64,000 bases of DNA from Candidatus Omnitrophota bacterium (lineage in GTDB: Bacteria > Omnitrophota > Gorgyraeia > Pluralincolimonadales > Pluralincolimonadaceae). The stretch spans positions 18,517 to 82,516 of the forward strand of contig JBAZJG010000003.1 of the NCBI GenBank assembly GCA_041651455.1. Direction: 5' to 3'. The number at the start of each line of letters is the position of its first letter. The first letter of the stretch is position 1. This document shows positions 1-20,653 of the stretch, one piece after another. The notes beneath the pieces are model-generated. The model did no database searches. It saw only the letters and a list, made by a program, of their open reading frames with translations, and had not been told where the DNA came from. The translations under genes were made by a program, and so were the position numbers.

Positions 1-31
1 TGGATAGGCGGATCCGTAAAATGAGGCGCAG

Positions 32-736
32 ATGAAGAAGAGCCGCTATTTCGAGTACCAGTCGAGGATGAAGAAGGCCTATAAGGAGCTGAGGAAGGAT
101 TACAACGAGGTAAAGCACTCATATTCCGAGATGATAATGCGCCTTGCGCTCATCGCGGAGCTTAAGGACGGCTCTACGGGAACCCACCTGGTCAAGGTCG
201 CCGAATACTGCACCGAGATAGCCCGCGGGCTCGGGCTTCCTAAGAAGGACATAGATTACCTGAGGTACGCAAGCCCCCTGCATGATGTAGGCAAGCTTAT
301 AATACCGGATTCGATACTAAAGAAGAAGGGCGGCCTCACGCCGGAAGAGCGCGAGATCGTAAAGAAACACGCAGAGATAGGCGCGGAGGTGTTTGAAGGA
401 AGCAACCTTAACCTGCTCAAGATCGCTATGATGATAAGCCTGACGCATCATGAGAGATGGGACGGCACGGGATATCCCCAGGGATTGAAAGGGAGCGATA
501 TCCCCATATTCGGAAGGATAGTAGCACTTGCGGACGTATTCGACGCGCTGACATCAAAGAGGCCCTATAAGAGGGCGTTCGGTTTTGAAGAAGCGATGGA
601 TATCATCAAGGCTGAGAGCGGGACGCATTTCGATCCGGCGATAGTCAAGGCGTTCCTTAAAAGGAAGAATGTAATAAAGAAGATATGGAAATCAAAACGG
701 CAGGTAGGATTGTTCATAACGGAGCAGATACCATGA
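32..736 (+). CDS. Stand-alone HD-GYP domain protein (putative c-di-GMP phosphodiesterase)
   Basis: 234 aa with HD motif (PLHDVGK), HHERWDG and GTGYPQGL signatures; stop TGA overlaps the next ATG (ATGA). Confidence 0.8.
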   Translation: MKKSRYFEYQSRMKKAYKELRKDYNEVKHSYSEMIMRLALIAELKDGSTGTHLVKVAEYCTEIARGLGLPKKDIDYLRYASPLHDVGKLIIPDSILKKKGGLTPEEREIVKKHAEIGAEVFEGSNLNLLKIAMMISLTHHERWDGTGYPQGLKGSDIPIFGRIVALADVFDALTSKRPYKRAFGFEEAMDIIKAESGTHFDPAIVKAFLKRKNVIKKIWKSKRQVGLFITEQIP

Positions 737-1593
737 ACCCGAGAATCATAATATCGCTGGTCATAGCTTGGATTGTAGTGAATGCTTGTGTTGGAATAGC
801 CGTAGCCATTGATGCTAAATCAGAATACCTAAGAGGAATAAATCTTGCTTCAGAAGGAAAATACAAGGAAGCAAAGAACGCATTGGAGCAATCGTTATCG
901 GACGAGTCGATAAAACCATACGCTGTATTAGAGATAAAGGCTATTGATGAAGCAATAAACGGAAGTGTCAGGCCAGAGATCGCCGCCAGGGCATTTAAAG
1001 GAAAGGCCTATGCCGTTAATAAAAATTGGAACCAGGCAATCTCTGAATATTATAAAGTCATAGAATTCAGTCCTTCATTTAGATATGCATATGTGAGTAG
1101 AGGGAATGCCTATTTGGAAACAAAGTCATACGGAAAAGCGGTAGAAGATTATTCTGAAGCCATCAAATTGGATCCAAAGGATGCAGATGTCTATAATAAG
1201 AGGGGCGTTGCGTACCAGTGGAAGGGCAATATCGATAAGGCAACAAAGGATTACTCATCGGCAATCGAGCTTGATCCCACGTCTGCAATATATTACTGCA
1301 ACAGGGGTCGTGCATATTATGTAAAAGGTAAACTCGAGGAAGCTCTCGCTGATCTCGATAAGGCAACTAAACTGAAACCTAACTATGTAGATGCATATCT
1401 TGTTAAAGGATGGACCTATGAGGACCTTAAGCAGAATGAGAATGCGATATCTGCTTATAAAAAAGTCATAGAATTAGATGCGTCAGAAAATAAATATGCG
1501 ACAAAGGAAGCCGAGGGGGCAATAAAGGACCTCGAGAGTAGAATAAAAAAAGAGACAGAAAAGAAATCTGATGATAGCAAAAAAAATAAATGA
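733..1593 (+). CDS. TPR-repeat protein with N-terminal membrane anchor
   Basis: Internal ATG at 733 (ORF track opens at 685). Hydrophobic N-terminus, then 6-7 34-aa TPR units (AYxxRGxAY...KAxxDYxxAIxLDP). Confidence 0.75.
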   Translation: MNPRIIISLVIAWIVVNACVGIAVAIDAKSEYLRGINLASEGKYKEAKNALEQSLSDESIKPYAVLEIKAIDEAINGSVRPEIAARAFKGKAYAVNKNWNQAISEYYKVIEFSPSFRYAYVSRGNAYLETKSYGKAVEDYSEAIKLDPKDADVYNKRGVAYQWKGNIDKATKDYSSAIELDPTSAIYYCNRGRAYYVKGKLEEALADLDKATKLKPNYVDAYLVKGWTYEDLKQNENAISAYKKVIELDASENKYATKEAEGAIKDLESRIKKETEKKSDDSKKNK

Positions 1594-2050
1594 GCTTATA
1601 AAGGACATGGATTTCGTGCTGATGGCCACGTGCGACCTCGACGGAAGGCCCAATGTCGCGCCTAAGTTCTTCCTGAAGGCGGAGAGCGGTTACCTATATA
1701 TGGTCGATTTCGTGATAGGCAGGACATTCAGGAACCTCAGCATAAACCCGAAGGCGTCAATATCGGTGGTCGACTATAAGAACCTTACCGGATACCAGGT
1801 AAACGGCGCGGTGGAGATCCTGTCCGAGGGCGGAGAATACGAAAAGGCCGCCAAAGAGTTCCTGGACAAGGAGATCAGCCTTTCGACAAAACGGATCGTC
1901 GAAGGCGTAAAGAAAGGCGAGAGGCATAATAGCTTTGAAGCGGCGTTCCCTAACAAGATAGTCGTATTCAAGGTCAGCATAGACGAGGCGGTCGAGATAG
2001 GCCCCGGCGGAGAACTGAAAAAAGAGGGCTATAAGGGAGACGTGCAATGA
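1571..2050 (+). CDS. Pyridoxamine 5'-phosphate oxidase-like FMN-binding split-barrel protein
   Basis: 159 aa with PPOX-class/general-stress-26-like N-terminus (DFVLMATCDLDGRPNVAPKFF); overlaps its neighbours at both ends. Confidence 0.6.
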   Translation: MIAKKINELIKDMDFVLMATCDLDGRPNVAPKFFLKAESGYLYMVDFVIGRTFRNLSINPKASISVVDYKNLTGYQVNGAVEILSEGGEYEKAAKEFLDKEISLSTKRIVEGVKKGERHNSFEAAFPNKIVVFKVSIDEAVEIGPGGELKKEGYKGDVQ

Positions 2051-3357
2051 AAAGATATCATATGCTTGCGTTTGTAGCGGCGATGCTGTGCGTTTCGATG
2101 ACGGTATCCTCCGCATATGCCGCGATAACATGGGCGGGCAATCTCAACAGCGCGCTGAGAGAGGCGAAGTCAAAGAATAAGCCCGTAATGGCCGATTTCT
2201 ACACGGACTGGTGCGGATGGTGCAAGAAGCTCGACAGGGATACTTATGCTGACCCTGAGGTGGCGAACCTCGCCAAAAGATTCATATGCGTCAAGGTCAA
2301 CGGCGACAAATATCCGGACCTCGTGTCCAAATATGGCGTATCCGGATACCCTACTATAATCTTCCTTGACCCGGCAGGAAACAAGGCAAATGCCATTGTA
2401 GGCTATGTGAATGCGGAAGGAATGCTCTCGAGGATGAACGCGGTCCTTTCGAGCTTGCCTGCGGAAAAACCCGCCAAGAAAGCCGAGGAAAAGAAAGAAG
2501 AGATGTCTGAAATGCCGGAGGATAAGAAGCCTGCCGGAGGCTGGAAGACAAAAGTCAACGACTGGTGGTCCGGAGTTAAAAAGACCGACTCTCCAGGCGA
2601 GCCGGTAACAACAGCTGACGAGACCGCCGGTGCCGGAACAGTTGCCGTCGCAAAAGGGACCATCTATAGCGATGTGCTTGAACTTAACAGCGGCAGGGGG
2701 ATACAGGGGCTCATAGAAAGTGAGGACGACCTGCATTACAACATCAAGCTGCCTCTCGGCAAGACGTCAATAAAGAAGGCCGATGTGAAGGAGGTCAGGA
2801 AGCTGTCTCCGGAGGAGGCCTGCGTAATGATGGGGGATAAGTATTACGAGACGAAGAATTATGATGCCGCGATGGCAGAGTACGTGAAAGCGTTGAGCAT
2901 AAATCCCGATTATAAGCCCGCGAAGGTATCGATGGAATCCGCGAAAAGGAAGAAGATAGAGCTCATAGAGCAGGAGAAGAAGAGGCAGAAACTTGAGCAG
3001 GAATCGGCGGAGAAGGAAGCTGAAGAGGAGCCCGCAGTTGTCGCAGAACAAGCCGAGCAGTTCGCGGCTAAGCGGATCAGCTTCGGTTTCAACGTTATGA
3101 ACAGGGAGATACTCAAGAGAAAATACGATTATAAGGACTTCGGTTTTTCGGTGGATGACGCGCTGGTCGTGAACGGCTTCTACGCGAAAAACCCCTGTTC
3201 CTGCAAGCCTGTCTATCCCGCGCAGGAAGCCGGTTTAAGGCCCGGGGATAAGATAGTATCTATCAATGGCGAGGCGGTAGGCGGCCTTACGGCGGCTGAA
3301 GCGACGAGGCTCATAGGAAGCCACCGGTATACTAAATTTGTAGTGGAACGGCCGTAG
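2047..3357 (+). CDS. Secreted thioredoxin-like (WCGWC) / TPR / C-terminal PDZ domain protein
   Basis: Signal peptide and thioredoxin CxxC (DWCGWCKKLD); central K/E-rich region with a TPR unit; C-terminal PDZ (GLRPGDKIVSINGEAV). ATGA overlap with the upstream gene. Confidence 0.7.
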   Translation: MKRYHMLAFVAAMLCVSMTVSSAYAAITWAGNLNSALREAKSKNKPVMADFYTDWCGWCKKLDRDTYADPEVANLAKRFICVKVNGDKYPDLVSKYGVSGYPTIIFLDPAGNKANAIVGYVNAEGMLSRMNAVLSSLPAEKPAKKAEEKKEEMSEMPEDKKPAGGWKTKVNDWWSGVKKTDSPGEPVTTADETAGAGTVAVAKGTIYSDVLELNSGRGIQGLIESEDDLHYNIKLPLGKTSIKKADVKEVRKLSPEEACVMMGDKYYETKNYDAAMAEYVKALSINPDYKPAKVSMESAKRKKIELIEQEKKRQKLEQESAEKEAEEEPAVVAEQAEQFAAKRISFGFNVMNREILKRKYDYKDFGFSVDDALVVNGFYAKNPCSCKPVYPAQEAGLRPGDKIVSINGEAVGGLTAAEATRLIGSHRYTKFVVERP

Positions 3358-3364
3358 AAGAACC

Positions 3365-3393
3365 TATACACATCAAATAAAGTTTGGTATAAT
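3365..3393 (+). promoter_or_regulatory. Putative extended -10 promoter for tRNA-Ala
   Basis: TGG-TATAAT at 3385-3393, with a weak -35 (TATACA) 17 nt upstream. Confidence 0.35.
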
Positions 3394-3456
3394 TAGCACC
3401 TTGTTGTCTAGAAATGGGGCTGGTCCACAGGACCGTTCCATTATATCCAGTAGCAT

Positions 3457-3532
3457 GGGGCTGTAGCTCAGCTGGGAGAGCGCTTGAATCGCACTCAAGA
3501 GGTCGGGGGTTCGATCCCCCCCAGCTCCACCA
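3457..3532 (+). tRNA. tRNA-Ala (anticodon CGC)
   Basis: Cloverleaf GGGGCTG / GCTC-AGCTGGGA-GAGC / CTTGA-ATCGCAC-TCAAG / GGGGG-TTCGATC-CCCCC / CAGCTCC-ACCA, with an encoded CCA. Confidence 0.9.
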
Positions 3533-3588
3533 TCTCAAAAGGGGATTTTCAAATCCTTAATCCTTCAATCAAGCCGCAAAGCAGGTTT

Positions 3589-4512
3589 ATGATCGGCGCC
3601 GCGGCAGTGGCATTCCTATTCCAATCACAAGCATATCCGGAAGATATCCGGAAGGCCGTAGTCGCCGGGTCGTTCTACCCGGCGGAATCGGTGGTACTTG
3701 CGCAGCAGGTCGACAGGTACCTTGAAGAGGCCGGCCCGCAGGAGATAGGCGGAGAGATAGTCGCCATAATATCGCCCCATGCCGGGTATATATATTCGGG
3801 GCCGGTCGCGGCTTACGGGTACAAGGCCATTTCGGGGCGCCGGTACGATACGGTGGTGATAATCGGGCAAAGCCATTCGCTTATATTCGACGGGGCGGCG
3901 GCGCTTGAAAAGGACCAATATGAGACGCCGCTCGGCAGGGTCCCGATCGACCGCGATTTTACGAAAAAGCTGTTGAGGGCCGAGAAGGTCACAATGGTAT
4001 CGAAGCCCGGGGCTTTTGACGAGGATTATACGATCGAGACCCAGGTGCCATTCCTGCAGAGGTCGCTGAAAGATTTCAAGATAGTGCCGCTGGTCATAGG
4101 AAGGGCGGATTATAACACCTGCAAAGGGCTCGCAAGGGGCCTTATAAAGGTCATCAAGGAATCCGGGAAGAGGGTATTGATAGTCGCAAGCACGGACCTT
4201 TCGCACTACTATAAGTACCCGGACGCCGTCGTGAAGGACCAGGCGACGATGTCCGAGATGATGAACTATGACCCAAAGAGGTTTGCGATAAAAGTGGGGG
4301 AAAGGGAATGCGAGCTTTGCAGCCCGGCGCCGGTTATAGTGGCCATGTTGGCCGGAACGGAACTGGGCGCCGACAATATCAGAGCGCTCAAATACGCCAA
4401 TTCAGGCGATACCGCCGGAGATAAGAGCAGGGTCGTAGGTTACGGAAGCATCGTTATCTATAAAGCCGAGGAGAATAGGATGCTTACTTCCGCGCAGAAG
4501 AAGGAGCTGTGA
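3589..4512 (+). CDS. MEMO1 family protein (AmmeMemoRadiSam system protein B-like)
   Basis: Start is the internal ATG at 3589; the ORF-track N-terminus would overlap tRNA-Ala. Motifs AGSFYP, ISPHAGY and TDLSHY. Runs in frame to the TGA at 4510-4512. Confidence 0.75.
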   Translation: MIGAAAVAFLFQSQAYPEDIRKAVVAGSFYPAESVVLAQQVDRYLEEAGPQEIGGEIVAIISPHAGYIYSGPVAAYGYKAISGRRYDTVVIIGQSHSLIFDGAAALEKDQYETPLGRVPIDRDFTKKLLRAEKVTMVSKPGAFDEDYTIETQVPFLQRSLKDFKIVPLVIGRADYNTCKGLARGLIKVIKESGKRVLIVASTDLSHYYKYPDAVVKDQATMSEMMNYDPKRFAIKVGERECELCSPAPVIVAMLAGTELGADNIRALKYANSGDTAGDKSRVVGYGSIVIYKAEENRMLTSAQKKEL

Positions 4513-5022
4513 GGCATCGCAAGAAAGACGATAGAGTCATATGTAAAGGACGGGAAGGTCCCGGAATTCAGGGTAGATGACGAGGGCCTGAAGAAGAACG
4601 AGGGAGCATTCGTCACGGTCCGTAAGGCCGGTGAATTGAGGGGCTGTATAGGGAACATTATCGGGCAGCAACCGCTCTATCTTACCGTAAGGGATATGGC
4701 CGTCGAATCCTCGTCCGCGGACCCGAGGTTCGTGCCGGTTAGCCCGGACGAACTTAAGGAGATCAAGATAGAGATATCTGTGCTCTCTGAGCCCAAGCGC
4801 GTCGAGGACGCGGACGGGATAAAACTCGGTGTGCACGGCGTCATAGTGAAGAGCGGATATCGCAGCGGCGTCTTCCTGCCGCAGGTTGCCGATGAGACCG
4901 GATGGACGAAGGAGGAGTTCCTTTCTAACCTTTGCGAGGGAAAGGCCGGACTTCCGGCGGACGCGTGGAAGGACAAGAAGACCGAGCTGTACGTGTTCAC
5001 GGCGCAGGTCTTCTCCGAATGA
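4480..5022 (+). CDS. AMMECR1 domain protein (AmmeMemoRadiSam system protein A-like), interrupted by an in-frame TGA at 4510-4512
   Basis: AMMECR1 homology (MLTSAQKKEL-[TGA]-GIARKTIESYVKDGKVPEF...LRGCIGN...) runs in the same frame as the upstream MEMO1 gene and across the TGA. SD GAGGAG at 4468-4473 precedes ATG 4480. After the TGA the first conventional start is TTG 4636, which would truncate the domain. Stop TGA 5020-5022 overlaps the rsmE ATG. Confidence 0.55.
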
Positions 5023-5741
5023 GCAGGTTCTTCGTACCTAAAGGTTCGGTATCGGCAGGCAGGATAACCGTGACAGGCGAGGAGCTCCATCACGCAAGGG
5101 ACGTGATGCGGCTCCGCGAAGGCGACCTCATAACTGTCTTTGACGGGACTGGCAAGGAATATACGGGAACGGTAGACAAGATAGGAAGGGACGAGATATC
5201 TGCAGCCGTCAGCAGGGTCTCCGAGGTCCCGAAGGAGAGATGCGCTATCACATTGATACAGGCGATACCGAAATCATCTAAGATGGACCTTATAATCGAG
5301 AAAGCGACTGAGCTCGGTGTCGCAAGGATAATACCAATCGTGACATCGCGGACGGTCGTAAAGATTTCGGGCGAAGGGAACAAGACCGAGCGCTGGAAGA
5401 AGATAGCGGTGGTCGCCGCAAAGCAATGCGGAAGGTCGACATTCCCCGAGATAGCGCCGGTCACCGGACTGAAAGATTCACTGGTAGAGGCGAAGGGCTG
5501 CGAGATATCGCTCATGCCGTGCCTTTATGAGGGCAATAAGCGGCTTATGGATGCGATCGGCGGACGCAAGGCCGCGTCCGCGGCGGTATTCATAGGGCCG
5601 GAAGGCGATTTTACGAAAGAAGAGGTCGAGGCCGCGGTTAGCTCAGGCGCCACACCCGTCATTTTAGGGAACGAAGTGCTGCGTTCCGAGACCGCGGCGG
5701 TCGCGGTATTGTCCATCATGAGCTATGAGCTCAGGTGGTAA
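5019..5741 (+). CDS. rsmE: 16S rRNA (uracil1498-N3)-methyltransferase RsmE
   Basis: Starts MSRFFVPKG and has the RsmE family C-terminal SPOUT fold (PEGDFT, NEVLRSETAAV). The ORF-track start at 4932 is an out-of-gene N-terminal extension. Confidence 0.85.
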   Translation: MSRFFVPKGSVSAGRITVTGEELHHARDVMRLREGDLITVFDGTGKEYTGTVDKIGRDEISAAVSRVSEVPKERCAITLIQAIPKSSKMDLIIEKATELGVARIIPIVTSRTVVKISGEGNKTERWKKIAVVAAKQCGRSTFPEIAPVTGLKDSLVEAKGCEISLMPCLYEGNKRLMDAIGGRKAASAAVFIGPEGDFTKEEVEAAVSSGATPVILGNEVLRSETAAVAVLSIMSYELRW

Positions 5742-5758
5742 AATAATCTAAAAAACTA

Positions 5759-5787
5759 TTGACAAATTCCACGGCGTATGGTATTTT
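5759..5787 (+). promoter_or_regulatory. Putative sigma70-type promoter for smc
   Basis: TTGACA at 5759-5764, a 17-nt spacer, then TGG-TATTTT (extended -10) at 5779-5787. Confidence 0.4.
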
Positions 5788-5788
5788 T

Positions 5789-5817
5789 TAGATAACAATT
5801 AGGGCAGTAGATAACAA
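5789..5817 (+). repeat. Perfect 10-bp direct repeat TAGATAACAA x2 (19-nt period) in the smc leader
   Basis: Copies at 5789-5798 and 5808-5817, immediately downstream of the putative -10. Confidence 0.5.
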
Positions 5818-5884
5818 AATTGTCTTGGCACTCCCCGACTGAGACACCATTTTGGTGGTCTTGTTTTCAAAGGAGGGTGCCAAT

Positions 5885-8800
5885 TTGCATTTTAAGAGCC
5901 TGGAACTGTTCGGATTCAAGTCATTTGCCAACAAAACTGAGCTGAATTTCGAACCCGGTGTAACGGCGATCGTCGGCCCGAACGGCTGCGGTAAATCGAA
6001 CATATCCGACGCCATAAAATGGGTGCTCGGCGAGACATCAGCCAGGGAAGTCCGCGGCAACAAGATGGAAGACGTCATCTTCAGCGGCACGGACGGTAAA
6101 GAGGCTCTCGGGTTCGCAGAAGTATCCCTCACTATAGTAAACCAGCCTAAGATACTCCCCACAGAATACGACGAAGTAACCATCACGAGAAGGGTATTCC
6201 GTTCCGGGGAGAGCGAATATTTCATCAACAAGTCCCCCGTTCGGTTAAAAGATATCAACGAACTATTCATGGGCACCGGCATCGGCACGTCCACCTATTC
6301 ACTTATGGAACAGGGAAGGATAGCCGAATTATTGGACTCGCGCCCCGAAGAGAGGCGCTATGTATTCGAGGAGGCCGCCGGCATCACCAGGTATAAGGCC
6401 AAGAAGAAAGAGGCCTTGAGAAAACTGGAGCAGACAGAGGCGAACCTCCTCAGGGTAAGCGACGTAATAACGGAAGTCAAGCGCCAGATCAATTCGATCG
6501 AGCGGCAGGCAAACAAGGCGAGAAAGTACAAGGAGGACTTCGAGAAGCTTAAAGAGATGGAGGTCGTCTCCGCGGCGAACGAGTTCAGGAAGATAAGGTC
6601 GGAGGAAGGCAGTATATATTCCGACAGGGACGGCCTAAAGGCAAAGGAAGACGAAATCAACGCAGTCATATCGGAGCTTGACTCGAAACTAATGTCTTTG
6701 AGGTCTGACCTCGACAAGGTGGACCACAGGCTGTCGGAAGCAAAGGCCAACGTGGTCAATATCGAGGGCCAGATCGAAAGGAACAGGGACAGGATAACCT
6801 ACAATTCCGAGCGGAGCAACGAGCTCAACGCGAGGATAGCAGCCATCGATAAGGACCTCGTATCCAGCAGGGAGAGATTGTCGAATGTGGAGGCTGAGGT
6901 TGCGAGGCTTAACCTCGAATCAGGCCAGTTCAAGAGCAACGAAGAGAACAAGAAGGCGGAGATAGAACAGAAGACGGCATACCTCGACTCGATAGCCGAG
7001 ACCGTAAGGGTATGCCAGGAGAATATAGAGAAGGCAAAATTATATATAGTGGACATAGCGCAGGGGCAGACGAGGGTACATAACGAGCTTACGAAAATGG
7101 TCGCCCATACGCAGCACCTCAGCGCGCGGCAGAGAAGGATAGAGGTGGAAAAGAGGAAGGTCGAGGAGGAGAGGTCGTCGTTCAACCAGAAACTCGGTGA
7201 CCTTGTAGTATTTGTCGAGAAGATAGGAAAGGATATCGAGGAGCTGAACTGGAAGAAGGCGCAGGCCGAGGGAAGCCTCAGCAGCCTCGACGAAGATATA
7301 GCCAAACTTGAAACGGACCTGCAGGGCCTGAATTCAGAGCTTACAACGGCTCAATCTCGCCTGACATTCCTCGAGGACCTTAAGGCGAAATATGAGGGTT
7401 TCTCGCTTGGAGTAAAGACCGTCCTTAAGGAGATAGAGCGCGGGTCCGGAGTGTCGGAAGGCGTGGTCGGTGTTGTCGCGGACCTCATAGAGCCGTTCCA
7501 GGGTTATGACGGTGTAGTCGAAGCTGCCTTGGGCGATATGGTACAGGCGGTGATCGTGAAGGACAGGGATACGGCGAGGAAACTCATAAGGTTCCTCGAT
7601 GAGGGTTCTCTCGGAAGGGCCACATTCATCCCCCTGGAAGGGCTTAGAAGGCAGGATGCTGCAAGCGATATATTGAATTACCTGAAGGTCAATGAGGCGG
7701 TAAAACCCGCCGTAGAATATCTCCTGAGGAACGCGTGCCTTGCCGAAGACCTCGACTCCGCTATTGCATCCGCGGCGGACCGCCAGGACAGCATGAGGTT
7801 CATAACCAGGAACGGCGAAGTGGTCGAAAGAGGTTACTCCGCGGGCGGAAAGGTGCCTAAGGCCGAAGGGTTCAGCCTTATAGGCAGGGACGCCAAGATA
7901 AAGGAACTCAGGATCAGCATAGAGAACCTTAAGGCAAGGACGGAAGCCGCGGCGGCGGAACTGAATGAAAAGAAGCAGTCAAGGGACCAGCTTGAAGCGG
8001 ACGCAAAGATGACGGCGGAACAGATACATAAGATACAGATAGATAACGCGAACAAGATAAGCGAAAAGTCGAGCATTGAAGAGGCCATAAATAAGCTCGG
8101 TGACGAAGAGTCCCTCCTTAACCTCGAGCTCGGCGAAGTGAAGTCCGAGATAGACACTTATGCCGTCAAGGAAGAGGAGCTCAAGAAAGAGCTCGCGGCA
8201 CTGAATGACGAGGATTCGAAGGTACAGGAGACGATAAAAGGTAACCAGGAAGCGATCGCCGGCAAGCTGAAGGAAAGGGAAGATACGCTTGTTCTGATAA
8301 CGCAGTTGAAGACCGAGCTGGACATGCTCAAGGACAAGGAGACCTCGGTCATAAACGCGCTTACGATGATGTCGCGTTCACTGGAAGACGAGAGGTCCGG
8401 CTATTTTGCGAAAGAGAGGGAGCTGGAAGATTCGAAGGGCAGGATATCCGAGCTCGTGGCGGAATCGGAGGGGCTCTCGAAGAAGAACGAAGAGCTGGTA
8501 AACAGCCGTACGGCTGCCGAGGCGGACTCGCAGAAGATACTCGACGAACGCAGGTCTGCCAGCGAGGCGATATCACATGTCGAAGCCGAAGCCAGGGAGG
8601 CCCAGAAGTCGATCAACGAGCTGAGCGGGAGGATACATACGCTTGAAGTCAAGACTACGGAGTTCAGCTATAAGAGATCGAGCATCAAGGACAGGCTCCA
8701 GCAGGTATATAAAGTGGAGACGGACCTCGAGCAGGTGGCGGTCCCGGAGGACATGAACTGGGACGAAACGAACGAGAAAATGGAAACCCTGCGCGCAAAA

Positions 8801-9427
8801 CTCGAGGGCATGGGCCCGGTGAATCTCGTTGCGATAGAGGAACACCAGGAACTGCAGGAGAGATATACGTTCCTTACCACCCAGCAGCAGGACCTGCTGG
8901 CCGCCAAGGACGACCTGCATAAGGCCATAAACAAGCTCAACAGGACAACGCGCGAAATGTTCCTCGAGACGTTCCAGAAGATACAGGTGGAGTTCAGGGA
9001 CATGTTCAGGCTGCTCTTCGGAGGCGGGGATGCAGAGCTGCTCCTGATAGACCAGGAGGATATCCTCGAGAGCGGAATAGAGATCATAGCGAGGCCGCCC
9101 GGGAAGAAGCCGCAGACGATATCGCTGCTGTCAGGCGGCGAGAGGTCTATGACGGCTATAGCCCTGTTGTTCTCGATATTCAAGGTCAAGCCGAGCCCGT
9201 TCTGCGTGATGGACGAGATGGATGCCGCGCTGGATGAGGCGAACATAGACAGGTTCTGCAGGGTGCTTCGCGATTTCGTGAAGACCTCGCAGTTCATAAT
9301 GATAACGCACAACAAGAAGACGATTTCGGTTGCCGACGTAATGTACGGGATAACAATGGAGGAGTCGGGTGTATCGAAGATCGTTTCAGTTAAGTTTTCA
9401 CAGGAGTTGGAAGCGAAGACAGCCTGA
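5885..9427 (+). CDS. smc: Chromosome segregation protein SMC
   Basis: Probable TTG start at 5885 preceded by AAGGAGGG; the protein then begins (M)HFKSLELFGFKSF. Walker A GPNGCGKSN, long coiled coils, hinge, and C-terminal signature LSGGERSMTAIALLF plus Walker B. Confidence 0.9.
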   Translation: MHFKSLELFGFKSFANKTELNFEPGVTAIVGPNGCGKSNISDAIKWVLGETSAREVRGNKMEDVIFSGTDGKEALGFAEVSLTIVNQPKILPTEYDEVTITRRVFRSGESEYFINKSPVRLKDINELFMGTGIGTSTYSLMEQGRIAELLDSRPEERRYVFEEAAGITRYKAKKKEALRKLEQTEANLLRVSDVITEVKRQINSIERQANKARKYKEDFEKLKEMEVVSAANEFRKIRSEEGSIYSDRDGLKAKEDEINAVISELDSKLMSLRSDLDKVDHRLSEAKANVVNIEGQIERNRDRITYNSERSNELNARIAAIDKDLVSSRERLSNVEAEVARLNLESGQFKSNEENKKAEIEQKTAYLDSIAETVRVCQENIEKAKLYIVDIAQGQTRVHNELTKMVAHTQHLSARQRRIEVEKRKVEEERSSFNQKLGDLVVFVEKIGKDIEELNWKKAQAEGSLSSLDEDIAKLETDLQGLNSELTTAQSRLTFLEDLKAKYEGFSLGVKTVLKEIERGSGVSEGVVGVVADLIEPFQGYDGVVEAALGDMVQAVIVKDRDTARKLIRFLDEGSLGRATFIPLEGLRRQDAASDILNYLKVNEAVKPAVEYLLRNACLAEDLDSAIASAADRQDSMRFITRNGEVVERGYSAGGKVPKAEGFSLIGRDAKIKELRISIENLKARTEAAAAELNEKKQSRDQLEADAKMTAEQIHKIQIDNANKISEKSSIEEAINKLGDEESLLNLELGEVKSEIDTYAVKEEELKKELAALNDEDSKVQETIKGNQEAIAGKLKEREDTLVLITQLKTELDMLKDKETSVINALTMMSRSLEDERSGYFAKERELEDSKGRISELVAESEGLSKKNEELVNSRTAAEADSQKILDERRSASEAISHVEAEAREAQKSINELSGRIHTLEVKTTEFSYKRSSIKDRLQQVYKVETDLEQVAVPEDMNWDETNEKMETLRAKLEGMGPVNLVAIEEHQELQERYTFLTTQQQDLLAAKDDLHKAINKLNRTTREMFLETFQKIQVEFRDMFRLLFGGGDAELLLIDQEDILESGIEIIARPPGKKPQTISLLSGGERSMTAIALLFSIFKVKPSPFCVMDEMDAALDEANIDRFCRVLRDFVKTSQFIMITHNKKTISVADVMYGITMEESGVSKIVSVKFSQELEAKTA

Positions 9428-9435
9428 TATAGTAG

Positions 9436-9460
9436 CCCTTGCGAGGGTAAGGGTTATTTG
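9436..9460 (+). terminator. Possible terminator hairpin between the convergent smc and GGDEF genes
   Basis: CCCTT-N8-AAGGG followed by TTATTTGG. Weak. Confidence 0.3.
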
Positions 9461-10623
9461 GATGTGTAGACGCAGACTTTATTTTTACCCGTTCGCTTTG
9501 CTTCGTACAGCGCCATGTCAGCCAGGTAGATCAATTTTTCCTTGTCGAGCGCGTCTTGCGGGTAGGTAGCCAGGCCGGCGCTTATGGTAAGATTCTTGTT
9601 CGGCTGGACGTCCTGTCCCTTAAATTGGAATCCTTCGATCGCCTGCCTCAATATTTCTGCTATCTGGTAAGCCGAATCCTTGCGCATGCCGGGCAATATA
9701 ACGGCAAATTCCTCGCCTCCGTAACGTGCAACTGAGCCCTTCCCGTCACAGGTGGCCTTAAGGATCCTCGCGACATCCCTGAGGAGCTGGTCTCCCATCT
9801 GGTGCCCGAGGGTATCGTTATAGTTCTTGAAATTGTCTATGTCGAACATTACGAGCGAAAGATCCTTCTTGTTCTCATACGCCTTCTTGAGCTCCTCGGT
9901 AAGCGAGTACTGGAAATACCCGTGGTTCCACAGGCGCGTGAGCATGTCGGTATTTGCCTGGTGGACCGTCTGCTCGTAGAGGCGGGAGTTCTCGATAGCG
10001 AGACCCGCATGGTTGGCGAACATCGTCAATGTCCTGATATCGTCCTTCGTGATGGGTTTCTTCGTGAAAATGTTATCGGCAAGTATGACGCCTATTACCT
10101 TGTCCTTGGCCCTCAGCGGCACCGTCACGAAATACTCGGTCCTCAGCGACTGAAGGATAGGGTCGCCTTCGATGTTCTTTCTCGTATGTTCGTTGGTTAT
10201 CTCGAAGCTCATGCCTTCCATGACGGTCATCGCAAGTACGCCTGAATCCTCACGGAGCGGTACCTTTATATTACGGACGATCTTGTCCAGCTCGGAACCG
10301 CCTTTCTTGTAGAAACTGTAGGCGGAAATAAGGTCTTCGAGGTTCATTCGCTCAGACTCGATCCTGTTCCAGATGCGTCCGGCCTCCTCGACGGAATGGG
10401 GGCCGATGCCCATCTTGCCCTCGACGGTATTGTCCTCTTCGTTGACGAGGAAGAGCATGGCCCTGTTGAAACCGAGCCCCTCATGCGAGGTCACTCCCGT
10501 AAGGATGATGAAGAGGATCTCATCCAGGTTAAGCGTGGAACGCATGGCGTTGCCGATCTCGTAGAAAATTGTGAGTTCGGCGCGGATCCTGTCGAGCATC
10601 TCCTGTAATGATCTTTTTTCCAT
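9454..10623 (-). CDS. GAF domain-containing diguanylate cyclase (GGDEF)
   Basis: N-terminal GAF-like region; C-terminal GGDEF with RYGGEEFAVILPG and DxLGH motifs. Confidence 0.85.
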   Translation of the reverse strand: MEKRSLQEMLDRIRAELTIFYEIGNAMRSTLNLDEILFIILTGVTSHEGLGFNRAMLFLVNEEDNTVEGKMGIGPHSVEEAGRIWNRIESERMNLEDLISAYSFYKKGGSELDKIVRNIKVPLREDSGVLAMTVMEGMSFEITNEHTRKNIEGDPILQSLRTEYFVTVPLRAKDKVIGVILADNIFTKKPITKDDIRTLTMFANHAGLAIENSRLYEQTVHQANTDMLTRLWNHGYFQYSLTEELKKAYENKKDLSLVMFDIDNFKNYNDTLGHQMGDQLLRDVARILKATCDGKGSVARYGGEEFAVILPGMRKDSAYQIAEILRQAIEGFQFKGQDVQPNKNLTISAGLATYPQDALDKEKLIYLADMALYEAKRTGKNKVCVYTSK

Positions 10624-10690
10624 AGTGGCAGTAATGATACCCTATTAAATACCCTTTGTCAAGGCAGGCAGGACAGTCCATAGCGGGGGC

Positions 10691-10719
10691 TTGACAAACG
10701 GGGAGCTTTGGTATAAACT
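10691..10719 (+). promoter_or_regulatory. Putative promoter driving the FMN riboswitch and rib operon
   Basis: TTGACA at 10691-10696, a ~15-nt spacer, then TGG-TATAAA. Confidence 0.4.
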
Positions 10720-10721
10720 CT

Positions 10722-10870
10722 ATTTGTTCTTCGGGAGGGGTGAAATTCCCCACTGGCAGTGAAATCCTTGCGCAAGCAAGGATCAAGCCTGCGAGCTTCC
10801 CAAAAGGGGGGCAGACCCTGTGAGATCCAGGGGCCAATAGTCAAAGTCTAGATGGGAGAAGACAGAACAC
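10722..10870 (+). promoter_or_regulatory. FMN riboswitch (RFN element)
   Basis: Conserved RFN blocks: GGGGTGAAATTCCCCACTGGC, AGCCTGCGAGC, a GACCC stretch, and AAGTCTAGATGGGAGAAGACA. P1 strands are GTTCTTC and GAAGA(C)AGAAC. It sits directly upstream of ribBA. Confidence 0.85.
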
Positions 10871-10900
10871 AAGGGCCGTGTTTTGCGTTCGCTTTATTTT

Positions 10901-10935
10901 ATCCCGGAGATTTTATCTTCGGGATTTTTTGTTTT
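10901..10935 (+). terminator. Intrinsic terminator (riboswitch expression platform)
   Basis: 10-bp stem ATCCCGGAGA / loop TTTT / TCTTCGGGAT, followed by TTTTTTGTTTT. The 3' arm TCTTCGGG is identical to the 5' strand of P1. Confidence 0.75.
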
Positions 10936-10946
10936 AAAGGAGAGGC

Positions 10947-12146
10947 ATGTTCAATACGATAAAAGAAGCGATAGAGGACATCAAAAGAGGCAGGATGGTG
11001 ATAGTCATTGATGACGAAGGCCGCGAGAATGAAGGCGACCTCCTGATGGCCGCGGAATTCGTGACGCCCGATGCGATAAACTTCATGGCGAAATACGGGC
11101 GCGGGCTGGTTTGCGTCCCGATGGAAGAAAGCCGGTTGCGTGAGCTCGGTATAGAAGTTCTATCCGAGACAGGCGGCGGCAATTTCAATACCGGGTGGAC
11201 AATGTCCATCGACCTCAAGGAAGGCGTAACGACGGGCATTTCGGCGCACGACAGGGCAAGAACGATAAAAGCCATGGTAAACCCGAGGTCGAAACCGGAG
11301 GACTTCAGCAGGCCGGGGCATATATTCCCCCTTAGGGCAAAGGAAGGAGGAGTCTTGGTCAGGACAGGGCATACCGAAGCGGCCGTGGACCTTGCCAAGC
11401 TCGCGAAGTTGAGGCCTGCAGGCGTGATATGCGAGATAATGAACGACGACGGAACGATGGCAAGGACCCCGCAGCTTAAGGAATTTGCGAAGAAGCACAA
11501 ACTAAAGATATGCACGATAGCGGACCTCATAAAGTACAGGATGGCCGCGGAGAAACTGGTCCGGCTTGTCGAGGTGACGACGCTCCCGTCGGAATACGGC
11601 GAGTTCAGGCTAATGCTTTACGAATCGATGATAGACAGGAAGGTGCATGTGGCGCTCGCGATGGGGGAACTGTCCGGGAAGCCGATACTTGTAAGGGTGC
11701 ATTCGGAATGCCTGACGGGCGATGTCTTCGGCTCTTTGAGGTGCGATTGCGGCGGACAGCTCAAGCGCGCCCTGTCGATGATAGGCAAGGAAGGCAGGGG
11801 TGTCCTGCTGTATATGAGGCAGGAAGGGCGCGGGATAGGCCTCGAGAATAAGATCAAGGCCTATGCGCTTCAGGACAAAGGCCTTGATACGGTAGAGGCG
11901 AACAAGGCGCTCGGTTTCGACGCTGACCTGAGGGACTACGGCACCGGCGCGCAGATCCTCGCGGACCTCGGCCTCAAGAACATACGGCTGCTGACGAATA
12001 ATCCGCAAAAGATAGTCGGGCTGGAAGGGTACGGGCTCAAGGTAGTGGAAAGGGTGCCTATAGAGATTCCTTCCAACCCGAAGAACTTCAGGTATTTGAA
12101 GACGAAGAAAGAGAAGATGGGCCACGTGCTCAGGAAGTTAAAATAA
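10947..12146 (+). CDS. ribBA: Bifunctional 3,4-dihydroxy-2-butanone-4-phosphate synthase / GTP cyclohydrolase II
   Basis: N-terminal DHBP synthase motifs ([18 protein letters not shown]) and C-terminal GCHII motifs ([15 protein letters not shown]); SD AAAGGAGAGG upstream. Confidence 0.9.
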
Positions 12147-12157
12147 AGGAGGGGAAG

Positions 12158-12622
12158 ATGGTGAAGACGGTAGAAGGGCAGTTGATTGCGAAGGGAAAGA
12201 AATTCGCTATAGTCATTTCGAGGTTCAACGATTTCATTTCGAAACGGCTCCTCGAGGGCGCGGTGGACACGCTTTTAAGGCATGGCGCCAAGGAGAGCGA
12301 AGTCGAGGCGGTATGGGTCCCGGGCGCGTTCGAGATACCGCTGGCAGCAAATAAGATAGCGAAGTCGAAGAAGTTCGACGCTATCATATGCCTTGGGGCT
12401 GTGATAAAGGGTTCCACGCCGCATTTTGAGTATGTATCCAGCGAAGCCGCGAAAGGCGTGGCGAAGGTATCGATGGACAGCGGCGTACCCGTGATATTCG
12501 GCGTGATAACGGCAGAGAACCTTGAACAGGCGATAGAGCGCGCGGGCACGAAGGACGGCAATAAAGGGCGCGATGCGGCCATGTCTGCTATAGAGATGGC
12601 GAACCTGTTAGAGAGCATCTGA
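12158..12622 (+). CDS. ribH: 6,7-dimethyl-8-ribityllumazine synthase
   Basis: 154 aa with lumazine synthase signatures ([18 protein letters not shown]). Confidence 0.9.
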
Positions 12623-13044
12623 TGAGAAAACGCACGCAGGCGCGCGAGTGCGCGCTCCAGATACTGTACCAGTCGGACATAAGGAAAGAGCAACCGGAGA
12701 AGCTGTTCCTCGATTTCTGGAGGGACAACGAGGTCGGCGCCGAGGTGTCGGATTTCGCCTCATCGCTGGTGCTCGGTACGCTCAAGAACATGAAGAAGAT
12801 TGACGAGACGATAACGAGCTACGCGAGCAACTGGAAGCTGAACCGCATGGCCGTCATCGACAGGAACGTTCTGAGGCTCGCAACATATGAACTGCTATTC
12901 TGCGATGACATACCGCAGAAGGTCTCCATAAACGAAGCGGTGGACCTCGCGAAGAAGTTCGGCGATACGGAGTCCGGTAAGTTCGTGAACGGGATACTGG
13001 ACAAGATAAGCAAAGAAGAGGCCAAGAGTGGAAAAGCTGGCTGA
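12622..13044 (+). CDS. nusB: Transcription antitermination factor NusB
   Basis: 140 aa NusB fold (REcALQILYQ..., LNRMAVIDRNVLRLATYELLF); TGATG overlap with ribH. Confidence 0.85.
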   Translation: MRKRTQARECALQILYQSDIRKEQPEKLFLDFWRDNEVGAEVSDFASSLVLGTLKNMKKIDETITSYASNWKLNRMAVIDRNVLRLATYELLFCDDIPQKVSINEAVDLAKKFGDTESGKFVNGILDKISKEEAKSGKAG

Positions 13045-13861
13045 CCTTCACGTCCATACGCGCCTTTCTGACGGGACGTTCACTCCGGAAGAGGCGGTTG
13101 AGGGCGCGAGGAAGGCCGGCCTTTCATGTATAGCTATCACCGACCACGATTGCGTTGATGCTATAGCGCCAGCAAGGAAAGCCGCAAGGGGCAGGGGCAT
13201 CGAGATCATCCCCGGAGTAGAGATGACCGCGCAGGAGAAATCGCGCGAGGTGCATATACTCGGTTATTATCCCGATATCGAAGACGCGCGATTCCTGAAG
13301 AGGCTAAAGGCAATAAGGCAGAACAGGGTCGACCGGGCATATAAGATCATCGAGAAGCTCAAGAAATACGATATATGCCTTGACCCGGAGACGGTGTTTG
13401 AGCTTAGCGGGCCGGGTTCCGTGGGCAGGATGCATATCGCATCCGTCCTCGAGCGGCGCGGATACGTATCATCGATAAAGGAGGCGTTCAACAGGTATAT
13501 CGGCGACAAAGGCCCCTGTTATGTAGCGCACTACGAGATAACAGCCAGGGATGCTATCGCAGAGCTCAAACGTGTAGGCGCGGTCGTGGTCTTCGCGCAC
13601 CCCCAGCTGATGGGAGGTGAGGAGCTTATACCGAAGTTCGTGAAGTACGGACTCGACGGCCTGGAGGCGTTCCATTCGGAACAGTCGAAGTCGGTGGCGC
13701 GTAAATTTACAGAGATCGCGGGTGAGAACGGCTTGTTGGTGACGGGAGGTTCTGATTGCCACGGCCTGAACAAAGGCCGGATGCTGATGGGGACTGTCAT
13801 GGTGCCCTACAGCCTTGTCGAAGGGTTGAAAAGATGCGCAAAGAGGACAAAAAATATATAG
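13028..13861 (+). CDS. PHP-family phosphoesterase (TrpH/YciV-like)
   Basis: GTG start. DLHVHTRLSDG, AITDHD and later His/Asp motifs of the polymerase/histidinol-phosphatase domain. Overlaps nusB by 17 nt and ribD by 28 nt. Confidence 0.75.
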   Translation: MEKLADLHVHTRLSDGTFTPEEAVEGARKAGLSCIAITDHDCVDAIAPARKAARGRGIEIIPGVEMTAQEKSREVHILGYYPDIEDARFLKRLKAIRQNRVDRAYKIIEKLKKYDICLDPETVFELSGPGSVGRMHIASVLERRGYVSSIKEAFNRYIGDKGPCYVAHYEITARDAIAELKRVGAVVVFAHPQLMGGEELIPKFVKYGLDGLEAFHSEQSKSVARKFTEIAGENGLLVTGGSDCHGLNKGRMLMGTVMVPYSLVEGLKRCAKRTKNI

Positions 13862-14871
13862 GCGCAGCGATAGAGCTGGCGTCAGCGGCAAGGGGAAAGA
13901 CAAGCCCGAACCCCTGTGTGGGCGCAGTGGTCGTAAAAAGAGGAAAGATAGTAGGAAAAGGATACCACAGGTATGCAGGCGGGCCGCATGCCGAAGTATA
14001 TGCCCTGAAACAGGCGGGAACAAAGGCAAAGGGCGCGACATTGTACGTTTCCCTCGAGCCGTGCAGGCATTACGGGAAGACACCCCCGTGCGTGGATATG
14101 ATAAATGAATACGGTATCAGGCGCGTCGTCGCGGCTATGAAGGACCCGAATCCGCTGAATAACGGAAAAGGGCTTGCCGCGCTCAGGAGGTACGGGATAA
14201 GAGCGGAATCCGGCATAATGCGCAAGGAGGCGCGGGAACTGAACAGGCCGTTCATAAAATATATGGAAGAGAAGATGCCCTTCGTGATCGTTAAGGCGGC
14301 ACAGACCCTCGACGGCAAGATAGCGACGAGGACGGGGGATTCGAAATGGGTATCTAACGAGGCATCTAGGAGGTTCGTCCACAGGTTAAGGAGCGAGGCC
14401 GATGCGGTGATCGTCGGCGCGAACACGGTTGTTAAGGACGACCCGCTTCTTACGGCGAGGATAAAAGGCGTAAGGGCAAAACAGCCGCTTAGGGTAATAC
14501 TGGCCGGAAGAAACGGCATACCTGGGAATGCAAAGGTCCTGCACAGCAGGGGCGGGAAGGCGCTTGTGATGATGCCGGACAGGAAGACGGGGAAAGTTGC
14601 CATTAAGAAGCTTTTGAGGGTACTTGCCGACAGGGGTGTGATGAGCGTGCTGATAGAAGGAGGCGGGGAATTGATCGCCTCGGCATTCAGGGAGAAGGTC
14701 GTCGATAAGGTCTATTTCTTCATAGCGCCGAAGATAGCCGGCGGAAGGGACGCGAAGTCGTCCGTAGAGGGTGAAGGCGTCGCTAATATGAAGGACTCGG
14801 TCGTGATCAGGGACATTACGTTGCACGATATGGCCGGGGACATACTTATAGAAGGATACGTCAGGAGATAG
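13834..14871 (+). CDS. ribD: Bifunctional diaminohydroxyphosphoribosylaminopyrimidine deaminase / 5-amino-6-(5-phosphoribosylamino)uracil reductase
   Basis: Internal ATG at 13834. Cytidine-deaminase zinc motifs (HAEVYAL, EPCRHYGKTPPC) plus a C-terminal reductase domain. Confidence 0.85.
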   Translation: MRKEDKKYIGAAIELASAARGKTSPNPCVGAVVVKRGKIVGKGYHRYAGGPHAEVYALKQAGTKAKGATLYVSLEPCRHYGKTPPCVDMINEYGIRRVVAAMKDPNPLNNGKGLAALRRYGIRAESGIMRKEARELNRPFIKYMEEKMPFVIVKAAQTLDGKIATRTGDSKWVSNEASRRFVHRLRSEADAVIVGANTVVKDDPLLTARIKGVRAKQPLRVILAGRNGIPGNAKVLHSRGGKALVMMPDRKTGKVAIKKLLRVLADRGVMSVLIEGGGELIASAFREKVVDKVYFFIAPKIAGGRDAKSSVEGEGVANMKDSVVIRDITLHDMAGDILIEGYVRR

Positions 14872-14872
14872 C

Positions 14873-15499
14873 ATGTTTACGGGGATAATAGAAGAGAAGG
14901 GGACGGTAGAAAGATTCGAGAAGTCCCGAGAGCCGTCGCTGATAACAATAAAGGCGGCTAAGACGGCGGCCGGCCTTAAGACCGGCGACTCGGTATCCGT
15001 TGACGGCGTATGCCTTACGGTCGTAAAGGCAGGAGAAGGAGCATTCTCGGCGGAGGCCGTTGAAGAGACGCTTAGGAGGACCACGCTCATCCTGCGCAGG
15101 CCGGGGGATGCCGTCAATCTCGAAGGTGCCCTTACCGCGGGATCAAAAATAAGCGGACATTTCGTTACGGGGCATATAGACGGGACGGGTGAGATAGGAT
15201 CTGTCAGGGAAAGTAAAGGCCAGAAGACCGTTGAGATCAAGGCGGAAAAAGACCTGCTGAAAGGCATCGTGCCGAAGGGATCGATAGCGGTCGACGGCAT
15301 CAGCCTCACTGTCGGGGACGTAAAAGAAGGTTCGTTCTCGGTCTACATAATACCTCACACGGCCGGGATGACCACGCTGGCATCTAAAAAGGCGGGAGAC
15401 AAGGTCAACCTCGAGACAGACATCCTCGGAAAATATGTCAATAAAAACGGTCTTTCCGGGATAACCATGGAATTCCTGCGGGAAAAGGGGTTCATTTAA
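14873..15499 (+). CDS. ribE: Riboflavin synthase (alpha subunit)
   Basis: MFTGIIEEKG start and duplicated lumazine-binding halves (GDSVSVDGVCLTV / GSIAVDGISLTV). Confidence 0.85.
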   Translation: MFTGIIEEKGTVERFEKSREPSLITIKAAKTAAGLKTGDSVSVDGVCLTVVKAGEGAFSAEAVEETLRRTTLILRRPGDAVNLEGALTAGSKISGHFVTGHIDGTGEIGSVRESKGQKTVEIKAEKDLLKGIVPKGSIAVDGISLTVGDVKEGSFSVYIIPHTAGMTTLASKKAGDKVNLETDILGKYVNKNGLSGITMEFLREKGFI

Positions 15500-19680: not shown

Positions 19681-20568
19681 ATGGAAGAGTTCATCAGGGA
19701 GTTCATGGATTTCATTTCCGTAGAACGCGGATTGAGCAAGAACACGCTCGAATCCTACGGGAGGGACCTCGCAAAATACACGGAGTACCTTAAAAAGAGC
19801 GGGATAACCGACCTGAACAGGGTCAAGAGGACGCAGATACAGGATTTTCTCATGAGCCTCAAGGATAGCAAGCTGAACGCAAGCTCTATCGCGAGGAACC
19901 TTGTGGCGATAAAGGTATTCCACAGGTACCTTACGAGCCAGAGGATTCTGAAGGAAGACGTGACTTCCGTCATAGAGACGCCAAAGCTGTGGAAGACCCT
20001 GCCGGACGTGCTCGACGAGAAGGAAGTCGAGGCGATACTTATGAGCCCGAACACGCGTTTGAAGCAGGGGCTCAGGGACAAGGCGATGCTCGAGCTGATG
20101 TACGCGACGGGAATGCGCGTGTCGGAGCTTGTGAACCTGAAATCGACTGACCTGCATATGGATATGGGATTCGTCAGGTGCCTCGGGAAAGGCCAGAAGG
20201 AAAGGATAATTCCCGTCGGAAGCAAGGCCAAGGAAGCGCTGGAGAAATATGTGATGAAAGCGAGGCCTAAATTCCTTAAGAAGGGAGAATCCGCGTCGCT
20301 CTTCCTGACGCGCCTCGGAAAGCCGATGTCGCGGCAGACATTCTGGATGGTCATAAAACATTATGTCAGGGACGCGAGGATAAAAAAGAGGGTCACGCCC
20401 CATACGCTTAGGCATTCGTTCGCGACGCATCTTTTGCAGAACGGGGCGGACCTAAGGATAGTCCAGGAGTTGCTCGGGCACGCAAACATCTCCACGACAC
20501 AGATATATACGCATATTAACAAGGAGCGGTTGAAGCAGATACACCAGAAGTTCCACCCGCGACCCTGA
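19681..20568 (+). CDS. xerD: Tyrosine site-specific recombinase XerD/XerC
   Basis: 295 aa with an N-terminal SAM-like core-binding domain and a catalytic domain (R...HxxR...Y: TPHTLRHSFATHLL, GHANISTTQIYTHI). Confidence 0.8.
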   Translation: MEEFIREFMDFISVERGLSKNTLESYGRDLAKYTEYLKKSGITDLNRVKRTQIQDFLMSLKDSKLNASSIARNLVAIKVFHRYLTSQRILKEDVTSVIETPKLWKTLPDVLDEKEVEAILMSPNTRLKQGLRDKAMLELMYATGMRVSELVNLKSTDLHMDMGFVRCLGKGQKERIIPVGSKAKEALEKYVMKARPKFLKKGESASLFLTRLGKPMSRQTFWMVIKHYVRDARIKKRVTPHTLRHSFATHLLQNGADLRIVQELLGHANISTTQIYTHINKERLKQIHQKFHPRP

Positions 20569-20576
20569 AAGGATTT

Positions 20577-20653
20577 GCGCCTGTAGCTCAATTGGATAGA
20601 GCGTTGGCCTCCGGAGCCGAAGGTTGTGCGTTCAATTCGCACCAGGCGCACCA
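20577..20653 (+). tRNA. tRNA-Arg (anticodon CCG)
   Basis: GCGCCTG acceptor stem, anticodon arm TTGGC-CTCCGGA-GCCGA, T-arm GTGCG-TTCAATT-CGCAC, CAGGCGC-ACCA. Confidence 0.9.

Follow-up and report, generated by a model that had tools for sequence, protein, structure and literature searches.

An in-frame TGA, apparently private to one assembly, interrupts a fused Memo-AMMECR1 gene of an Omnitrophota bacterium

We analysed a 64-kb stretch of a Candidatus Omnitrophota contig (the window), in which positions 3589-5022 encode homologs of the B (Memo) and A (AMMECR1) components of the AmmeMemoRadiSam system. Translation of this region gave a single frame whose sole internal stop is the TGA at 4510-4512, with MLTSAQKKEL before the stop and GIARKTIESYV after it (the same context reads YKAEENRMLTSAQKKEL, stop, GIARKTIESYVKDGK). 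An earlier note on this DNA had proposed that B and A lie in one frame and are parted solely by this codon, which is what the translation gives. The part before the stop opens with a short hydrophobic N-terminus, followed by the Memo/AmmeMemoRadiSam-B domain (about 3649-4458) and, after a linker, the first ten codons of the A domain (4480-4509). The features of the locus are collected in Table 1.

Table 1. Features at and around the interrupted B-A gene, with positions in the window.
Feature	Position	Strand	Evidence or remark
tRNA-Ala(CGC)	3457..3532	+	ARAGORN; Rfam tRNA 65 bits; directly upstream of B-A gene
Fused B-A gene, 5' part	3589..4509	+	TIGR04336 4e-80, PF01875 2e-61
Two variant bases	4509..4511	+	G at 4509 and 4511 here, T in k141_1803373; base-by-base comparison and alignment A1
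In-frame TGA	4510..4512	+	codon 308; position of a nearly invariant Leu in the AMMECR1 N-terminal stretch
AMMECR1/A domain, remainder	4513..5022	+	TIGR04335 4e-54, PF01871 2e-57
rsmE (16S rRNA U1498 N3-methyltransferase)	5019..5741	+	NF008692 2e-62, 210.7 bits (cutoff 196)
Same-frame abutting pairs			metallo-beta-lactamase-fold protein and tyrosine recombinase; hisD and hisB; trpE and trpG; M48 peptidase and helicase

Both domains score far above the curated cutoffs of the known B (TIGR04336/PF01875) and A (TIGR04335/PF01871) families. The B domain matches TIGR04336 with 268.9 bits (cutoff 26) over profile positions 1-270 of 270, and Pfam Memo PF01875 with 207.9 bits (cutoff 27). Alignment of 4480-5022 to TIGR04335, which had been suggested as a check, gave 182.5 bits (cutoff 99) over profile positions 2-175 of 175, a full-length match that holds only with the TGA read through as X. 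With the same read-through, Pfam AMMECR1 PF01871 matched with 190.8 bits. Because the TIGR04335 profile begins at residue 9 of MLTSAQKKEL, the TGA falls at about profile position 4. It therefore lies inside the A domain, as the earlier note had held, and the domain is not encoded without interruption. The A domain also aligns end to end with archaeal MM0484 (PDB 1zq7, E-value of 3e-33), which has the same MLT... N-terminus. The TGA corresponds to V11 of MM0484 and V14 of PH0010 (PDB 1vaj), where the N-terminal stretch of the domain has a hydrophobic residue. Both of these are standalone AMMECR1 proteins, whereas the A domain here is the C-terminal half of a fusion.

Residues H64, H96, D203, H206 and C244 of the B domain, which by analogy with MEMO1 we take to be a putative metal site, are invariant in a 35-sequence alignment and retained in the window protein. 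The RGCIG motif of the A domain (within LRGCIG, in the part after the stop) is likewise invariant in the family alignment and kept. ATG 4480 and the GAGGAG at 4468-4473 are both present as described earlier, and this ATG now encodes merely a 10-aa peptide. The first canonical in-frame start past the TGA is indeed TTG 4636, the codon for the L of LRGCIG, and an A ORF that begins there is short of about 52 residues at its N-terminus.

We searched with the read-through protein and obtained 7,998 matches, of which the best 120 are single proteins of about 390-546 aa that carry both Pfam domains. Among these 120, the named proteins are mostly from Candidatus Omnitrophota, and the IMG label on named matches is 'AmmeMemoRadiSam system protein B/AmmeMemoRadiSam system protein A'. 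A genome scan with one genome per species found 597 stretches encoding a relative. We kept 80 loci, and each of the 80 contains an uninterrupted B-A ORF of 444-570 aa. This answers the question whether homologs in related genomes are B-A fusions, and with every kept locus and the best matches fused, the fusion is therefore the normal state in the phylum. The idea that B and A here are two genes sharing a frame has to be abandoned: judged from these homologs, 3589-5022 is one fused Memo-AMMECR1 gene of 477 aa when intact. Hundreds of fused B/A proteins of Omnitrophota share its domain order, length and linker, and the copy here differs from them in being broken by the TGA at codon 308.

Two further observations concern the architecture of the fusion. 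Most fused B-A proteins start with a segment of hydrophobic residues resembling a signal peptide (e.g., MKK..LLFFFLSSNCFAQ; alignment A2, columns 1-95), and this segment is shortened in the window protein (MIGAAAVAFLFQSQA; 3589-3650). A putative signal peptide would be unexpected on the partner of a cytoplasmic radical SAM enzyme. At the B-A junction (homologous to window 4468-4482, in loci L002-L084), the A domain still opens with an ATG codon in 55 of 82 fused genes. A GGAG, GAGG or AGGA motif lies 5-16 nt upstream in 51 of the 58 genes with a start-type codon at the junction, a raw count in a linker that is Glu/Lys-rich. The junction ATG and its SD-like motif may be left over from a time when A was a gene of its own, or may form a conserved internal start from which free A could be made.

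We compared the interrupted gene with its closest homologs. The best match is a 477-aa protein (P0001) that is 100% identical to the read-through protein and has Leu at the window's TGA; residues 1-307 of it are 100% identical to the product of 3589..4509. It comes from an independent 34-kb MEGAHIT contig, k141_1803373 of ENA assembly ERZ27247363 (locus L001). Window positions 1-12725 are identical to this contig save 4509 and 4511, so that CTG TGA (Leu-stop) here stands against CTT TTA (Leu-Leu) there. The A-domain DNA after the stop is identical to that of the intact gene in L001 and shows no decay. Loci L002 (92% DNA identity) and L003 (86%) have CTT TTG at the site. Across 84 well-aligned relatives the site codon specifies Leu in 79, Ile in four and Met in one, and is never a stop; in the 35-protein alignment, at least 90% of the sequences have Leu in this column. 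The earlier note had called for a search for sense-codon variants in related genomes, and they are found throughout: TTA in the contig identical over 12.7 kb, TTG in closer relatives and a sense codon in 84 of 84.

The stop is also in deposited records. The exact 307-aa shortened product occurs in JGI/IMG, and NCBI MFA5164363.1 is a 301-aa version named 'MAG: AmmeMemoRadiSam system protein B [Candidatus Omnitrophota bacterium]'. The two share one 167,088-bp contig, where the adjoining rsmE is MFA5164365.1. As these two records represent the same assembly, each of the two codons, TGA and TTA, is backed by a single assembly. An exact scan of genome and metagenome contigs with a 41-mer that spans the site and leaves the two variable bases free (N) gave no matches, and therefore no additional near-identical assemblies for comparison. 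Looking up the window's rsmE product returned solely the ENA contig. In this comparison of sequences, then, the stop is private to this assembly.

Identity with k141_1803373 ends after 12725, and divergence starts at 12726 inside nusB (12622-13044). From there, window 12726-15022 differs from L001 19138-21434 by ~12%, with substitutions of every type, and the divergence continues through the PHP and ribD genes. Either the switch at 12726 marks a point of recombination between strains, or one of the two assemblies was joined chimerically there.

We also examined the genes around the fusion in the window and in its relatives. The sole ORF with a CxxxCxxC motif in the window is RimO (34451-35794; TIGR01125, E-value of 2e-155), 30 kb away from B-A, which agrees with the earlier reading of rimO as the only radical SAM gene present. 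A TIGR04337 radical SAM gene was found neither adjoining B-A nor elsewhere within the 64 kb, so here the cognate gene of the three-component system does not accompany A and B. The cognate enzyme of relatives (TIGR04337, E-values of 1e-108 to 1e-114; cutoff 220 bits) is encoded by an ORF of 360-400 aa that immediately precedes B-A and often overlaps it. Among the 75 related loci with enough upstream flank, the gene directly upstream is TIGR04337 in 37, a tRNA-Ala in 16 (21%) and neither in 22. These counts, which also bear on where the radical SAM partner lies in relatives, show that an adjacent partner is present in only about half of the loci. Its absence is therefore a common state in the phylum and not a peculiarity of this locus. 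The claim that the pair lacks a radical SAM partner thus holds for the window, but not as an anomaly. On the other side, the start of rsmE overlaps the B-A stop by ATGA (5019-5022), and the ATGA coupling of the A frame to a gene that scores above the rsmE cutoff was correctly described. rsmE lies downstream of B-A in 20 of 84 related loci; it is a neighbour and not an AmmeMemoRadiSam component.

Other radical SAM genes occur near the fusion in some relatives. In L003 (1280-2689) and in L004 and L005 (211-1620; these two are the same contig), a gene for a 469-aa B12-binding radical SAM protein lies between the tRNA-Ala and B-A and overlaps the B-A start by 35 nt. Its carriers are the closest other species (87-89% protein identity), and it is absent from the window (3533-3588), L001, L002 and L007. 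It has HpnJ- and BchE-type class B matches, all below their cutoffs, and might be a lineage-specific alternative radical SAM neighbour. We rejected it as a general substitute partner, as it is directly upstream only in L003 and L004/L005, with related ORFs further upstream in three other loci. Many Omnitrophota loci contain CxxxCxxC ORFs of 420-470 aa, 1-2.5 kb downstream of B-A. The two that we scanned (L011 10152-11549; L008 11929-13281) are MtaB-type methylthiotransferases (TIGR01579, E-values of 1e-128 to 1e-133). Together with rsmE, these ORFs place B-A in a recurring neighbourhood of RNA-modification genes. Elsewhere in the window, a tyrosine recombinase (19681-20568; Phage_integrase 1e-54 and an N-terminal SAM-like domain) is encoded close upstream of tRNA-Arg(CCG) (20577-20653) and may represent XerC/D or mark one end of an integrated element.

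How should the TGA be explained? Programmed recoding of the UGA, by selenocysteine or regulated readthrough, would give full-length B-A protein and make the stop regulatory. The frame runs perfectly past the TGA into a conserved domain, and in bacterial selenoprotein genes the in-frame UGA likewise lies inside a conserved domain. The RNA from 4507 also folds slightly better than shuffles: positions 4507-4570 have an MFE of -14.6 kcal/mol (z = -1.8). Yet this fold consists of three short stems of 3-5 bp, the sole local structure is a 5-bp stem to which the stop codon itself belongs, and among 200 shuffles 7 folded at least equally well. Selenoprotein genes have a SECIS hairpin directly after the UGA, whereas folding of 4507-4570 and an Rfam scan found no SECIS-like hairpin just 3' of the UGA here. 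The search for such an element proposed earlier thus ended with a fold unlike SECIS. Rfam has no match at the site (its only match is the tRNA-Ala), and no tRNA-Sec was found within the 64-kb window, where the three tRNA genes are those for Ala, Pro and Arg. The residue whose place Sec normally takes is a catalytic Cys and not a Leu buried in a helix. Unlike in selenoprotein genes, no relative has Cys or Sec at the homologous position, and neither a stop nor Cys occurs at the site in any of the 84. Programmed readthrough is not supported, because a conserved stop would be expected and is missing even from the contig identical over 12.7 kb. The sense codon in that contig and in all 84 relatives therefore points to a lesion or a base-calling error and not to programmed recoding, which we regard as highly improbable; all recoding readings together hardly amount to more.

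A genetic code in which TGA is a sense codon (code 4 or 25) has nothing in its favour apart from this one codon and is improbable in the extreme. TGA ends 25 of the 58 long ORFs in the window, including SMC (TAA 24, TAG 9), consistent with the earlier view that it is an ordinary stop elsewhere. This TGA is the sole spot in the window where an in-frame stop interrupts one protein family. No other window gene has an in-frame TGA between two halves of the same family, each further pair of abutting ORFs in one frame (Table 1) consists of separate complete genes, and relatives have Leu codons at the site. The lineage might instead have split the fusion functionally, with B ending at 4512 and a shortened A translated from TTG 4636 or a non-canonical start. 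Standalone A proteins are known: L091-L095 match just residues ~284-477, most of them from ~296-299, and archaeal MM0484 begins with MLT... precisely at the A-domain start. A weak AAGG also precedes TTG 4636. However, natural standalone A proteins start at the MLT... position and not 52 residues on. ATG 4480 here yields a 10-aa peptide alone. A product from TTG 4636 would be without the domain's N-terminal stretch ahead of LRGCIG. An exact look-up of this 128-aa product found no record in the protein collection, which counts against a split, and there has been neither compensatory change nor divergence since the stop arose. We consider a functional split very unlikely.

The locus is thus very probably one standard fused B-A gene with a private nonsense codon, and not a case of recoding. 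The codon would have arisen very recently by a double-base mutation in the sampled population, or it would be an error of consensus or base calling in this single assembly. Of the three options offered in the earlier note, the nonsense lesion in a B-A fusion and the assembly error survive; programmed readthrough or selenocysteine-like recoding falls to the sense codon in 84 of 84 relatives. Two T-to-G changes, two bases apart, would have turned CTT TTA into CTG TGA and so created an unprogrammed nonsense codon. Translation would end at 4512, and the product would be an intact Memo domain that carries a 10-residue A-domain stub. The remaining A domain could then be started only at TTG 4636, at the cost of about 52 conserved N-terminal residues. 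A functional form of this domain is probably not produced, because those residues include the N-terminal stretch of the domain.

Whether the TGA is a real allele or an artefact is almost evenly balanced, with a slight lean towards a real allele. By our own arithmetic, two independent substitutions within 3 bp across 12.7 kb would be expected with a chance of about 3 in 10,000. The pair is therefore a single event (a tandem or multi-nucleotide mutation) or an artefact. The dN/dS values of the window against L002, L003 and L005 are 0.09-0.12 for B and 0.04-0.08 for A, and such low values indicate strong purifying selection on both halves in the lineage. If the allele is real, the stop is very recent. 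The contig is long and, this pair aside, matches the output of an independent assembler letter for letter over the 12.7 kb, which argues against a random or sloppy consensus error. Conversely, both changes are T-to-G and hit an invariant residue of a gene under constraint, which speaks against a natural allele that is tolerated. T-to-G is an over-represented Illumina error class and the 'dark-base' call of two-colour chemistry, and as both changes are T-to-G, we counted this bias on the artefact side. We also considered templates for the change. No other copy of GGAGCTGTGAGGCAT with at most two mismatches, which could have been a donor template, was found in the window or in 96 loci beyond the homologous site. 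The changes do improve the complementarity of a TGTGA...TCGCA stem, but we rejected this quasi-palindrome as probably due to chance, because a true template switch would have altered the middle base too.

There is also a slim chance that the TGA is real and that some full-length B-A is made by near-cognate readthrough at UGA-G. This would lower the A-domain dosage in a strain-specific manner while free Memo is kept. If true, it would be a natural experiment in which the Memo half works without a covalently attached AMMECR1 half.

The association of Memo, AMMECR1 and radical SAM proteins is credited to Burroughs et al. 2019 in a passage of PMC7159879. Our literature search for 'AmmeMemoRadiSam' found the term in passing mentions only, and the NCBIfam models of the system are typed 'hypoth_equivalog'. 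The gene described here is a disrupted copy of a known fusion, already annotated in fused form by public pipelines, and the locus departs from the known AmmeMemoRadiSam picture solely by its private stop codon. The biological weight of the stop is slight; the worth of the result lies in a false lead removed and in cleaner annotation. NCBI MFA5164363.1 and the IMG call both represent shortened products, and the gene should be flagged as a disrupted B-A fusion (pseudogene or sequencing error). A modestly useful by-product is the view of the system in the phylum: AmmeMemoRadiSam in Omnitrophota is typically a two-gene unit of TIGR04337 followed by the B-A fusion. The fusion is uncoupled from the radical SAM gene in about half of the genomes, which bears on the mutual dependence of the three parts.
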